Shown: positions 1-5,200 of the stretch, in pieces
Layout: every line of letters begins with the position of its first letter
Numbering within the stretch: the first letter of the stretch is position 1
DNA from: a bacterium
GTDB lineage: Bacteria > Patescibacteriota > Microgenomatia > JAMCZE01
Direction of reading: 5' to 3'
NCBI GenBank assembly: GCA_021836035.1
Contig: JAKBJL010000002.1
Coordinates: 3,691-67,690, forward strand
Length of the DNA stretch: 64,000 nucleotides
The notes under the pieces: generated by a model
What the model was told of the DNA's origin: nothing
Seen by the model: the letters and a program-made list of their open reading frames with translations, nothing else
Database searches by the model: none
Translations under genes and position numbers: made by a program

Positions 1-17
1 ATTTCAGCACGCATATA

Positions 18-350
18 TTATTTTAGGGGACACTCGGAGTTCTTGTGGGTAAAAATTGTTCCCGGGTGAATCTCTTTAATTGCCTGGTTTGTAGCTTCGG
101 TCAGCAAAAGGTTATCACTTTCTTGAATTTCAGCTGATTCTAATTTAAGCGAAGCCCACATCGAGCCTATATCCTCGACCTCACCCAAAGCGAAGGTTTT
201 AACTGTGCGTGGTTTCTGGCCATCTAGATACTCGATCCTAGTTCGTTGTCTACTCGCATAGGCACGGGCCGTATCGTGAAACCGTCCGCAGCACATTGAT
301 GGATCTTCTTTGTATTTTGGACAGTCTGAATAGGGTAAACTTTCAGCCAT
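18..350 (-). CDS. hypothetical Cys-rich small protein (CxxC...CC...C pattern)
   Basis: 110-aa ORF in the track with several Cys pairs and no recognisable family. It sits at the edge of the island. Confidence 0.3.
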   Translation of the reverse strand: MAESLPYSDCPKYKEDPSMCCGRFHDTARAYASRQRTRIEYLDGQKPRTVKTFALGEVEDIGSMWASLKLESAEIQESDNLLLTEATNQAIKEIHPGTIFTHKNSECPLK

Positions 351-446
351 ACCTCATCATTATACTACAGGTTATTACTGAATCCAATTCCGTCAATCAC
401 CTTGCGGCAGTAGCAAGCCTCGGTGTACCCAGTCCCATACCATTAA

Positions 447-692
447 AGATATAAAGAATCGCTTACCGCCGGTCACAAGATTTGTGAACAGATTTTTAAC
501 AAAGACCTTAAAATCAGAGCTGACCAAGCCGGCTTGACTAAACGCGCCCATGCCCACGCTTTCCGCCATTCATATATCATGGAACATATCCGCCGAGGAA
601 CTGATGTCATAACTATCGCTCATCTAGTCGGTCACAAAGATTTGACAACCACGATGAATTACACCAAATATAATTGGGATGATTTACTATGA
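447..692 (+). pseudogene. tyrosine recombinase/phage integrase C-terminal fragment (box II region only)
   Basis: Manual translation gives ...LTKRAHAHAFRHSYIMEHIRRGTDVITIAHLVGHKDLTTTMNYTKYNWDDLL*. This matches the HxxRH...LGH...Y catalytic-region pattern of XerD-type integrases. An in-frame stop at 444-446 lies directly upstream and there is no start codon, so it is absent from the ORF track. Confidence 0.6.
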
Positions 693-861
693 GGCGCCGA
701 AAACCATCCGTTTTTCTCCATGACTCTCCCGCCGGAGAAGATCCTCGACAAGATTCAGGACTCAATTGATAAATGGCCAATTAAAAATGACCGCCGTTTT
801 AGTCGGACAATCACCCGTAAAGACAATAAAATACTAGTGGAGGTTTCCATAAACGAGGGCG

Positions 862-867
862 TATAAT
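862..867 (+). promoter_or_regulatory. -10 like TATAAT 6 nt upstream of the ATG at 874 (possible leaderless transcript)
   Basis: The sequence gggcgTATAATtttgtaATG is visible directly in the window. There is no Shine-Dalgarno at proper spacing. Confidence 0.25.
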
Positions 868-873
868 TTTGTA

Positions 874-1317
874 ATGGACGCCCTAAGTAGTTTGGTCCAT
901 GACTTTAGCCATACTTCCTCCCCTGCCGATGCCATCACTATTGTGCTTCTGATTTCCGTCCTGCACGTTTTAATAAGAGACCGTCGCCAACTTAAAAAGA
1001 ATACCGGAGTGATTAACCAAATCCTCTCGGATTTTGACAAAAGAAGGAAAGAATTTACCCGTTACGAACGATCAATGCTCGCTAAGATTAAAAGGCTGGA
1101 AAAAGGCATTAATAGCAAAGGCGGCAAGCTTAGTGCCATTCAAGCTGTCATTAATGAGAATAAGCTCAGATTTGATGAAATTGACCGAAAATTCTTTGGC
1201 TATTTGGAGCTTCTAGACGCTGACAGGAATAAGAAAGCCAGAATGGTGAGTGAGCTGAAACAAGAATTAAGCGAAGAAGAAAAGAAAATTGCCAAAGAAT
1301 TAAAAGTTAAGCATTAA
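874..1317 (+). CDS. membrane-anchored coiled-coil protein (N-terminal TM helix, K/E-rich heptad-like C-terminus)
   Basis: A hydrophobic stretch ITIVLLISVLHVLI is followed by a charged repetitive segment, KRLEKGINSKGG...ELKQELSEEEKKIAKELK. It lies 43 nt upstream of, and co-directional with, the DUF3800 gene. Confidence 0.4.
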   Translation: MDALSSLVHDFSHTSSPADAITIVLLISVLHVLIRDRRQLKKNTGVINQILSDFDKRRKEFTRYERSMLAKIKRLEKGINSKGGKLSAIQAVINENKLRFDEIDRKFFGYLELLDADRNKKARMVSELKQELSEEEKKIAKELKVKH

Positions 1318-1360
1318 CTCCGCTCTTTCCGGACCTCTGAATACCATCCATAATAATTTC

Positions 1361-3265: not shown

Positions 3266-3283
3266 TAAGCGCTATTTTAACAT

Positions 3284-3499
3284 CTATTTGATAGTTTTCG
3301 ACTTTAACCACGTTCGATTATAAATATAGGTAGCAGCTGGAATAATTGAAATTACTGCCCCCGCAATTGTTACGATGGCTTTCACCAACTCCCCTGCTTG
3401 GTCGGGGATTACGACACCAGTTAGTGCCAAAATTCCAACTGCTTGGGAAATCAGAGTCACATAAAATTCGGTTGATTGATATCCGGGTTTAATATTCAT
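3284..3499 (-). CDS. holin-like small protein with two TM helices
   Basis: 71 aa with two hydrophobic segments (ISQAVGILALTGVVI and AIVTIAGAVISIIPAA) and a charged C-terminal tail. It lies immediately downstream of the amidase in the same orientation. Confidence 0.4.
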   Translation of the reverse strand: MNIKPGYQSTEFYVTLISQAVGILALTGVVIPDQAGELVKAIVTIAGAVISIIPAATYIYNRTWLKSKTIK

Positions 3500-3510
3500 A
3501 TGTTCACCCC

Positions 3511-3690
3511 CTACCTCTGAAAGAAAAAGACTTTTTGTAACAGCAAAATGCCGATTATCAGGATGATCCCAATTTTTAAGATAATAGAATCCAGCCTGCT
3601 AATAACTTTTTCCCAGGATTCGTTTTTCTTTATTTCTAACTTTCCCAAGCGTTCCTTCCAGGAAAGCTTAGCTTGTTCAGTTTTACTCAT
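3511..3690 (-). CDS. 59-aa single-TM protein translationally coupled to the amidase (holin/antiholin-like), not in the ORF track
   Basis: Manual translation gives MSKTEQAKLSWKERLGKLEIKKNESWEKVISRLDSIILKIGIILIIGILLLQKVFFFQR*. Its ATG overlaps the amidase stop as ATGA at 3687-3690. The C-terminus is a TM helix. Confidence 0.35.
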   Translation of the reverse strand: MSKTEQAKLSWKERLGKLEIKKNESWEKVISRLDSIILKIGIILIIGILLLQKVFFFQR

Positions 3691-4355
3691 AAGCCCGCCG
3701 TCGCGAGAATTTTTTGAATCTTTTGGGTATTAGTGAAACGCAAATACCATTTACCACCGTTATCAATAATTGCCTTAATCTGAAACAAATCGTTTTTGTA
3801 ATCATGAATTGGAACAACAGGATCAAAAGCTACTCCAAAGGCTTTGCAGATTCCTCTGGCTATAGCACTAGGAATAATTTCCGGATCAACGGCAATAACT
3901 GAGTCGTGAGCGTCTTTGATAACACAGGTTTCAATGATCACGCAGGGAGTTTTTGCTGACAGCATTGACCACCAGTAGTAAAACTTTGTGTTGGCATTCG
4001 ATCTTTCTGGATGATTTGTTATTCCCGAATGAGTAAAATATTCACTTTCAATCGCTTCTTTGATTCTTTTGGATTCCGCATTGGCTGAATCAACTGACGG
4101 ATCGGGGTAATCGATAAATCCACCACCAGTGCCATAAACATTTGCATCACAATGGATTGCCAGCGCGAGATCGAAATCCTCATTGCTTTGGAAGTTGGCA
4201 TCAGCCAGAAATAACTGAAACTTATCTGGAAATCTTGCTAATAAAATTTGAGACACTTTATCCCGAAACCGGATATTGGCAGCTATTTCTCCTGGTGCTC
4301 CGGTTTGTCCGTTAGTCGTATTTTGGTGTCCAGCCTGAATCAAAATTTTAAACAT
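3687..4355 (-). CDS. N-acetylmuramoyl-L-alanine amidase (Amidase_3-type, endolysin-like)
   Basis: ILIQAGH..., AIHCDA and TPCVIIETCVIKDAHD match the zinc-amidase (MurNAc-LAA) His/Asp/Glu motif pattern. No signal peptide is present. It is flanked by small TM proteins, as in a phage lysis cassette. Confidence 0.6.
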   Translation of the reverse strand: MFKILIQAGHQNTTNGQTGAPGEIAANIRFRDKVSQILLARFPDKFQLFLADANFQSNEDFDLALAIHCDANVYGTGGGFIDYPDPSVDSANAESKRIKEAIESEYFTHSGITNHPERSNANTKFYYWWSMLSAKTPCVIIETCVIKDAHDSVIAVDPEIIPSAIARGICKAFGVAFDPVVPIHDYKNDLFQIKAIIDNGGKWYLRFTNTQKIQKILATAGL

Positions 4356-4442
4356 CTTATTTCTTGCCTATTAAGGCCATAATGTCATTAAGCGACGAGA
4401 GAACAAATCAAACTAATCCGCCGATTCCGGCAGCAATCCCAA

Positions 4443-4634
4443 TTAGCACTTTCCAGGTGAGACGAAAGTCATGGCGCCAGTGAGTTTGACCGCTGTGCCG
4501 TCTTTAAGCTCAGTGATCGTGGTTATAAGCGCGTCAACTTTCGCTTCTAAGCGAATCAGCAAATCATGATCGGATTTTTGCATTTGATCTGATTTTATAT
4601 CAGTGAAAGGTAAATACCGTTCCGGCTCCCCCAC
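4443..4634 (-). CDS. hypothetical small protein (63 aa)
   Basis: ORF upstream of the amidase in the same orientation with no recognisable family. Confidence 0.25.
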   Translation of the reverse strand: MGEPERYLPFTDIKSDQMQKSDHDLLIRLEAKVDALITTITELKDGTAVKLTGAMTFVSPGKC

Positions 4635-4747
4635 CAGCTGGAGTATAAGTAACTTCTAGATAGGGTTTATTGCTTGCAGAATATGAATTGTTCCACGAGA
4701 AATTTTCCCCTTGATTGCCACCCATTCCCGGATCATTTTGAGTGTAA

Positions 4748-5200
4748 TCAATGCCACAACGAAGCCCCAGTTTTGAAATTCCCGAGCCTTTTCGTCTGTT
4801 CCGTCTGGATCGCGGCGTATTTTAAAACCCTTTCTTTACAGCGGTTGACAAATTCAGCCACACCGTAAACTTCAATGTCTTTTTTTGTTTTAAATCCTAA
4901 TTCTTTTTCTACCTCCACCTCGACCCAGAGACCCTGACAGTCAAAACCGTTTTGAAAACGCTGCCGGTAACCCCGCATGTTATAAAAACGCTGCCAAAGG
5001 TCCTTATAGGTTCTTCCCCAGGCATGATGCACCCCCATGGGGTTATTGGCCGTAATCGGGCCATCCAGAAAGGAAAATTTTTTCCTGGCTTTATCGTTTT
5101 TATGGAGATACTTTGCCACTAATCCACCGGCATACCATTCTTCAAGTAATTTCTTCTCCATCTCCGGAAAATTAATTTTCAGATCAACGGGCTTAAACAT
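4748..5200 (-). pseudogene. ileS: isoleucyl-tRNA synthetase N-terminal fragment (about 150 codons), truncated
   Basis: [61 protein letters not shown] aligns to the IleRS HIGH-region through the GWDCHGLPIE block. Similarity ends after ...KRLGNF and the ORF stops 5 codons later. No continuation is found in any frame downstream. The HIGH motif is degenerate (VHHAWG). Confidence 0.55.

Follow-up and report, generated by a model that had tools for sequence, protein, structure and literature searches.

A truncated ileS beside ftsZ in a Microgenomates-type bacterium is one arm of a 538-bp direct repeat bordering a decayed mobile island

The stretch of DNA analyzed here, 64,000 nucleotides of contig JAKBJL010000002.1 (positions 3,691 to 67,690; assembly GCA_021836035.1) from a bacterium of the Microgenomatia, hereafter the window, raises the question of how an essential gene comes to be cut short: next to ftsZ, the gene for isoleucyl-tRNA synthetase (ileS, product IleRS) starts normally and ends early, and foreign-looking DNA follows as far as position 1. 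An earlier note, made from the sequence alone, had read this as an island inserted into ileS at an attachment (att)-type junction, with either a second ileS elsewhere or the rest of the gene beyond the left edge. We find instead that the fragment, here called ileS′, is one arm of a 538-bp direct repeat (repeat F) and not a disrupted single gene, because a second copy of the end of ftsZ, the leader, and the start of ileS lies 3.55 kb past the left edge of the window. The gene is probably duplicated at its start, and not lost.

The right part of the window is taken up by a minus-strand cluster of division and cell-wall genes (among them murG, ftsA, ftsZ, and a 126-aa open reading frame (ORF)), and ileS′ begins 78 nt after the end of ftsZ. 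The features on which the argument turns are, in window coordinates:

6524-7855, minus strand: ftsA, upstream of ftsZ
5279-6457, minus strand: ftsZ, upstream of ileS′
4748-5200, minus strand: ileS′, a pseudogene fragment; 150-aa ORF made of 142 IleRS codons, an 8-codon out-of-frame tail (KTGASLWH), and a stop
4776-5313, minus strand: proximal copy of repeat F, 538 bp; the last 11 ftsZ codons, the 78-nt spacer, and ileS codons 1-142
4775..4776: novel joint at which ileS codon 142 meets the island; illegitimate, and no att core
4600-4775, minus strand: truncated phage structural gene, ~58 codons of its 3′ end, containing NKPYLEVTYTPAGGG; match in IMG/VR

The copy of ileS next to ftsZ is a dead fragment cut at codon 142. 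That the IleRS-like gene ends early had been seen correctly before: its ORF runs for 150 codons, with homology lost at residue 142, and it matches the Pfam class I catalytic domain (tRNA-synt_1) over profile positions 2-124 of 414 only (E=5.5e-24). For comparison with relatives, we scanned the GTDB genomes and kept 80 loci, the top match (L008, Candidatus Amesbacteria, IleRS of 947 aa) being 79% identical, so that the species of the window is not represented in the 80. In all 80 relatives, the alignment to ileS′ ends at residue 140-142, or at 150 by chance, and where the relatives read KRLG(Y/N)F and then MDWD, the window reads KRLGNF and then KTGASLWH and a stop, such that the end of IleRS homology (residue 142, window position 4775) is also the first foreign DNA. 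When the 947-aa IleRS of L008 was used as a tblastn query, residues 3-143 aligned to window 5197-4775 and nowhere else. An intein- or intron-like interruption, which the earlier note had considered, was rejected on the same search, as nothing past residue 143 was found either in the 64-kb window or in a 3.7-kb extension of the island to the left (see below). In three of the relatives (L008, L014, and L091), the gene order is ftsA-ftsZ-ileS-rodA, with an ileS product of 947-996 aa; in L008 and L091, rplU comes next.

The nature of the fragment becomes clear from DNA beyond the window. Exact lookup of the truncated IleRS product gave no entry; that of the island proteins led to independent contigs covering the island, of which the most informative, L003 (ENA ERZ27233560, assembled with megahit, 8,620 bp), reproduces window 4916 down to 1 at 100% identity, continues for 3,554 bp, and then reenters host sequence, running from window 5313 down to 5164. 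Its first 141 bases (L003 1-141) are window 4916-4776, and its last 150 (L003 8471-8620) differ from window 5313-5164 by a single mismatch (C at window 5305, T in L003), so that both ends of the contig lie in F, in the same orientation, and both novel joints of the island are read directly. The island is thus an 8,329-bp block between direct copies of a 538-bp host segment. The stretch of the distal copy (F′) contained in L003 opens with the final 11 codons of ftsZ, passes through the spacer and its terminator, and ends 12 codons into ileS; the second copy of the ileS start at the far end of the island is accordingly seen over the first 150 bp of F only. The one difference between F and F′ falls in the ftsZ remnant, where the conserved DIPAF has become DISAF (LDISAFMRQRK and a stop) in the nonfunctional copy. 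We note that a 42-codon ORF at L003 8377-8505 enters this 11-codon remnant in frame (MFQSEK, then LDISAFMRQRK and a stop), which is probably a coincidence of frame.

The direct repeat found on extension to the left is a host segment whose ends fall inside genes, and not the att site that the earlier note had suggested looking for. The alternative of that note, a gene continuing beyond the left edge, comes close insofar as a second ileS start does lie there; this start arises by duplication of the 5′ end, however, and the 3′ part is not furnished by the island.

The manner in which the assemblies break supports this picture. With a single distinguishing base at 5305 (the sole difference between the copies in the 150 bp compared), a de Bruijn graph would branch at 5305 and at 4775, and the contig ends fit these two points for k=141 as well as for k=31. 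Specifically, L003 and L004, from two assemblies made with megahit at k=141, both begin at 4916 (4775+141); L003 and a 235-kb chromosomal contig, L090, both stop at 5164 (5305-141); and the chromosomal contig L002 from Logan (k=31) stops at 5275 (5305-30). This branch structure is present in four assemblies, and every indexed contig except that of the window breaks within F, with none crossing it. In these samples, F is a collapsed two-copy repeat with two entries, one from the full ftsZ (base C) and one from the left end of the island (base T), and with two exits, one into the phage-gene remnant and one into something first differing at base 4775. Most simply, this second exit would be the body of ileS, because the relatives have ftsA-ftsZ-ileS-rodA and an ileS that runs past codon 142; it would read AATTT(T/other)ATGGATTGG. 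The window's own contig runs from ftsZ through F into the island, and island and chromosome are found together at 100% identity in four datasets. Strain-level variants occur within the island, where a further contig, L006, carries 2 mismatches.

At the joint itself, the island begins in the middle of a gene. The structural-gene remnant is 37% identical over 48 residues to a 305-aa ORF (L092 7527-8444, containing TKLGLKS...KPYLEVTYT) in the tail-gene region of the viral contig IMGVR_UViG_3300009502_000187, and this similarity, read in a second frame, begins with the first codon of the island. As the phage-gene homology reaches exactly to the joint, the break lies inside both coding sequences: judged from these alignments, the joint is no attachment site but a fusion of mid-ileS to the middle of a phage structural gene. 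The idea that codon 142 is a recurrent att site was likewise rejected, since none of the other short IleRS entries of the protein collection breaks there, these being contig-end partials or broken at other positions. With the integrase stub described below lying in mid-island, the att-type junction of the earlier note is not borne out.

What lies to the left of 4775 is nevertheless foreign, mosaic, and decayed, and begins where IleRS homology ends, so that this much of the earlier reading as a decayed island stands. Its GC content is 0.40-0.44 against ~0.50, and the tetranucleotide profile of 1-4700 lies at a distance of 0.0284 from that of the remaining window, compared with 0.0135 +/- 0.0023 (max 0.0175) for the other 4.7-kb tiles, making it an outlier by ~6 standard deviations against all other tiles, including the other low-GC part; by composition, this DNA is clearly foreign. 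The endolysin, small transmembrane (TM) proteins, P-loop protein, DUF3800 protein with its partner, and integrase fragment listed in the earlier note were all recovered where it had placed them. Within the window, the island carries, from the joint leftward:

4443-4634, minus strand: small coiled-coil ORF, probable ATG at 4583, upstream of the endolysin; only weak Pfam matches
3687-4355, minus strand: Amidase_3 endolysin (Pfam PF01520, E=3e-9; PHROG 435 'endolysin')
3511-3690, minus strand: small membrane protein, 59 aa, 1 TM segment by hydropathy, overlapping the amidase stop
3284-3499, minus strand: small membrane protein, 71 aa, 2 TM segments by hydropathy
2207-3265, minus strand: 352-aa deoxynucleoside-kinase-like P-loop kinase (Walker A GMPDAGKST)
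2017-2143, minus strand: DUF3800-III RNA motif, diverged copy, convergent with the DUF3800 gene
1361-2023, plus strand: DUF3800 protein, 220 aa, module A (Pfam DUF3800, E=3e-7)
874-1317, plus strand: TM coiled-coil partner, 147 aa, module A; one N-terminal TM segment, weak coiled-coil-type matches
447-692, plus strand: tyrosine-recombinase stub, the last ~80 codons (HxxR...GH...Y); PHROG 'integrase' matches
18-350, minus strand: 110-aa ORF without a family match; the same ORF is on L003, L006, and L007

The lysis region has clear viral relatives. The endolysin is 77% identical over 177 aa to that of IMG/VR contig UViG_3300037461_000376, in which small TM proteins likewise come after the endolysin. 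The two membrane proteins at 3284-3690 appear to be holin-like endolysin partners, to judge from their hydropathy, their place in the gene order, and the overlap with the end of the amidase gene; neither finds a family match in Pfam or PHROGs. Hydropathy gives no in-frame TM segment in the coiled-coil ORF upstream, which is followed at 4395-4445, in another frame, by a hydrophobic tail, WKVLIGIAAGIGGLV, and may be a frameshifted XhlA-like gene. The sequence at 4395-4500 is identical in L003 and L004. Searches of cultured-phage databases (DNA and protein) with the lysis region, amidase, kinase, and structural remnant gave no match.

The 352-aa protein appears to belong with the deoxynucleoside kinases. 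Its family profile, searched against the PDB, finds deoxynucleoside kinases (8puu_A at E=3e-13, as well as 6ybh, 1ot3, and many other dNK/dCK/dGK chains), with the match spanning the Walker A motif, the DRG motif, and the lid, and 5 of 40 family members match Pfam dNK, which the window protein alone does not. The family comprises 82 cluster representatives in 1.84 billion proteins and has no Pfam family of its own, and the protein has ~70 extra residues at each of its N- and C-termini compared with the solved dNKs. A single-sequence AlphaFold model was unusable (pLDDT 33). This gene is not specifically viral, because homologues of 57-58% identity adjoin housekeeping genes (Era, GluRS, a class II aminoacyl-tRNA synthetase, and HtrA and CtpA peptidases) on other metagenomic contigs (L094 10001-11065 and L096 9965-11062). 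IMG/VR gave no relatives of either the kinase or the DUF3800 protein, and PADLOC returned only weak matches for the latter and its partner. The RNA motif opposite the DUF3800 gene scores 28.1 bits with Rfam RF02962, under the gathering score of 43.8.

As for the integrase, the stub matches Pfam Phage_integrase (PF00589) over positions 125-168 of 172 (E=5e-8), and its frame is open only from ~447 to 692, with stops upstream in the same frame. It lies ~4 kb from the joint, in the interior of the island and not at its end, as the island continues leftward: L003, L006, and L007 all extend past window position 1. Outside the window, the island contains a 91-aa ORF, a second, broken DUF3800 module, and an insertion sequence (IS) of the IS1595 family (L003 coordinates):

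L003 5195-8244: second broken module (DUF3800-III RNA, DUF3800, TM coiled-coil), split by the IS1595 element
L003 5234-5360, plus strand: paralogous copy of the DUF3800-III RNA (RF02962, 54.7 bits; gathering score 43.8)
L003 5543-7567: IS1595-family element, ~2 kb, ~630-2650 bp left of window position 1

The two RNA copies are 79-97% identical in parts, and each runs convergently toward the 3′ end of a DUF3800 gene. The IS encodes a 236-aa transposase (DDE_Tnp_IS1595; NCBIfam transpos_IS1595, E=2e-55), has terminal inverted repeats of 35 nt that are 80% complementary (L003 5543-5577 and 7533-7567), carries a 291-aa DUF3800 passenger, and is itself inserted into another DUF3800 gene. No further copies of the island genes or of the IS are found in the remaining 59 kb of the window, and no replication, partition, packaging, or morphogenesis function was detected among the ORFs of the 8.3-kb island with Pfam, PHROGs, or NCBIfam. 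The island has lysis and structural genes with viral relatives; it has no complete integrase at an end and no short att repeats at both ends. It is a mosaic, and not a single decayed prophage.

Two other compositional features lie outside the island. At 49000-64000, GC falls to ~0.42 with a host-like tetranucleotide profile (r >= 0.90), and at 9000-11500, over ftsW/mraY-type membrane-protein genes on the minus strand, AT skew rises to +0.36, which probably reflects T-rich hydrophobic codons.

Both copies of F contain the following leader element:

5221-5284, minus strand: T-box-like core (AAGGUGGUAUCGCGG) and terminator hairpin, between ftsZ and ileS

The Rfam T-box match covers positions 183-216 only (14.6 bits), and a terminator scan places the start of the hairpin at the ftsZ stop codon. 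A full T-box leader before ileS was not found in either copy, where only the 3′ core is detectable and Stem I is not; an apparent full-length match in L003 has low posterior probabilities. In the relative L091, the spacer is 616 nt long and contains a T-box at L091 5732-5870 (44 bits, E=2e-8, below the Rfam gathering score). In our organism, either the riboswitch is reduced or Stem I falls within the coding sequence of ftsZ.

We also searched for the ileS body of this organism. With the 150-aa product as query, only short proteins (137-260 aa) were listed, the top nonself match being 79% identical; as full-length IleRS with equal local similarity do exist (e.g., P0121), the missing long matches of this word-indexed homologue search are not evidence of absence. 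A hybrid query joining F to the L008 body gave no IleRS with an N-terminus matching F, the contigs breaking in F, and neither did one joining F residues 96-142 to the body of a closer relative (L014/P0234). An exact-match scan of JGI metagenomes with the last 36 nt of F likewise returned no match.

Taking these results into account, we favor an integrated arrangement, in which the chromosome reads ftsA-ftsZ-F (ileS codons 1-142)-island-F′-ileS body as the outcome of a Campbell-type duplicative insertion, and we would put the probability of this reading at about 0.62. On this account, the 8,329-bp mosaic, with its phage late-gene/lysis remnant, dNK-like kinase, two DUF3800/TM coiled-coil/RNA modules, and integrase stub, would sit in the chromosome of a Microgenomates-type bacterium of the candidate phyla radiation (CPR) between two copies of F. 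The arrangement seen would result if a circular, F-bearing DNA recombined with the chromosome in a single crossover, and a replication template switch duplicating F would be another route to the same product. F′ would then run into a full-length ileS, the working gene starting 8.9 kb further on, so that the essential gene would be kept. Several considerations favor integration over an episomal state: the island is full of wreckage (the integrase stub, the truncated structural gene, the split DUF3800 gene, and the IS); any circle bearing F would recombine into exactly such an arrangement; the island accompanies the chromosome at 100% identity in the four datasets; and one assembler resolved the path from ftsZ through F into the island. 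Furthermore, autonomous maintenance of the island is unlikely, because no replication, partition, or packaging function was detected and several of its genes are broken. Weighing against this reading are the failure of the two hybrid-query homologue searches and the JGI scan to retrieve the ileS body, the fact that 150 of the 538 bp of F′ are all that is directly seen, and the dependence on the window's contig as the only one to cross F, a 538-bp repeat being a place for short-read mis-joins. In addition, an empty chromosomal site together with a circular element fits the same k-mer graph, and F′ keeps just 113 nt upstream of the ileS ATG, including the terminator, which leaves transcription of ileS from F′ unexplained.

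Cells with the island between F and F′ may coexist with cells having an empty site, the two forms interconverting by recombination of the 538-bp repeat; this is a tentative possibility, which draws on the same graph evidence and on the strain-level variants of the island in L006, and is an extension of the integrated reading and not an alternative to it. An assembly mis-join, with the chromosome intact (ftsZ-F-ileS body) and the island a separate molecule or an excised ~8.87-kb circle carrying F, we regard as unlikely, but it is a real risk: the join lies inside sequence present at least twice in the sample, near-identical copies that short reads cannot phase, all other contigs stop inside F, the ends of L003 show the classic signature of a circle, and the island is a strong tetranucleotide outlier. 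Yet a molecule with an IS, broken copies of DUF3800, and the stub of an integrase, and with no replication or packaging genes, resembles chromosomal junk and not a replicon, and the tendency of an F-carrying circle to recombine into the chromosome, as well as the path that one assembler did resolve, argue for the join being genuine. We are more doubtful still that the island is a mobile unit that no longer makes use of its integrase, having captured the 538-bp host piece as a homology arm with which it enters and leaves an essential gene by host homologous recombination. Such a unit would leave ileS intact but transcribed under island control, because only 113 nt of native upstream DNA precede the working copy. 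By far the least probable is the model of the earlier note, site-specific insertion through an att junction into the only ileS at codon 142, with a second ileS elsewhere. While the ileS fragment does end exactly at foreign DNA, an integrase remnant is present, and no intact ileS of the organism was retrieved, this model is at odds with a joint in mid-phage structural gene, an integrase stub in the interior, the absence of a recurrent break at codon 142 elsewhere, a far island end that has a second ileS start with leader and ftsZ tail, and the second exit from F in the assembly graphs.

The integrated arrangement that we prefer does not overturn current understanding; the island is an ordinary object, namely, a genomic island that contains a phage remnant and lies within a duplication of its target gene, with a real risk that the window's join is an assembly artefact. 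It carries a warning for genome-resolved metagenomics, in that a seemingly truncated essential aminoacyl-tRNA synthetase in a CPR genome is here probably a duplicated 5′ segment and not a gene loss, and in that every assembly of this organism is broken, and may be mis-joined, at repeat F. It also documents phage-derived lysis genes and DUF3800/RNA modules inside what would be a Microgenomates chromosome and, if the integrated arrangement is confirmed, would be a natural case of homology-driven duplicative insertion beside the cell-division cluster.

Each part of the locus resembles something known. The DUF3800-III RNA motif has been described as a neighbor of DUF3800 genes that is encoded on the other strand, with no function known for the pair (Weinberg et al. 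2017, PMC5737381; RF02962), and here, too, the RNA lies on the strand opposite to DUF3800 genes, with one copy above the gathering score and the window copy below it. As in decayed prophages and islands, the composition is foreign, the lysis cassette has a viral relative, a structural gene is truncated, an integrase survives as a remnant, and an IS has invaded. The differences are that no tRNA or att core marks the boundaries, that there is no intact integrase, that only ~1.5 kb is recognizably phage-derived, and that chromosomal relatives of the kinase occur in other CPR contigs.

The e14 element and phage 21 reportedly integrate in Escherichia coli icd and leave a displaced fragment, icdC. 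The likeness would lie in a mobile element residing in an essential or important gene without inactivating it, because one end of the gene is present twice; one of the two copies is a displaced and dead fragment that borders the element, here ileS′ at 4748-5200. At icd, however, it is the 3′ end that is duplicated, with a diverged element-borne copy, a short att core, an active integrase, and a fragment of ~165 bp, whereas here the duplication takes in the 5′ end together with the leader and the last codons of the gene upstream, a single mismatch separates the copies over the 150 bases known for both, the two joints are illegitimate, and what remains of the integrase is a mid-island stub, with no intact recombinase or defined att core.

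The closest parallel to the arrangement is the Campbell-type single crossover familiar from suicide-vector insertion-duplication, in which a circular DNA with a 5′ gene fragment inserts, reversibly, between direct repeats. Here, the crossover would have occurred naturally, in an uncultured member of the CPR and not with a vector, and the second copy is inferred to be complete; the product of such a crossover is nonetheless the very order seen here, that is, the upstream gene, a 3′-truncated copy, the insert, and a second copy that starts from the left boundary of the fragment.

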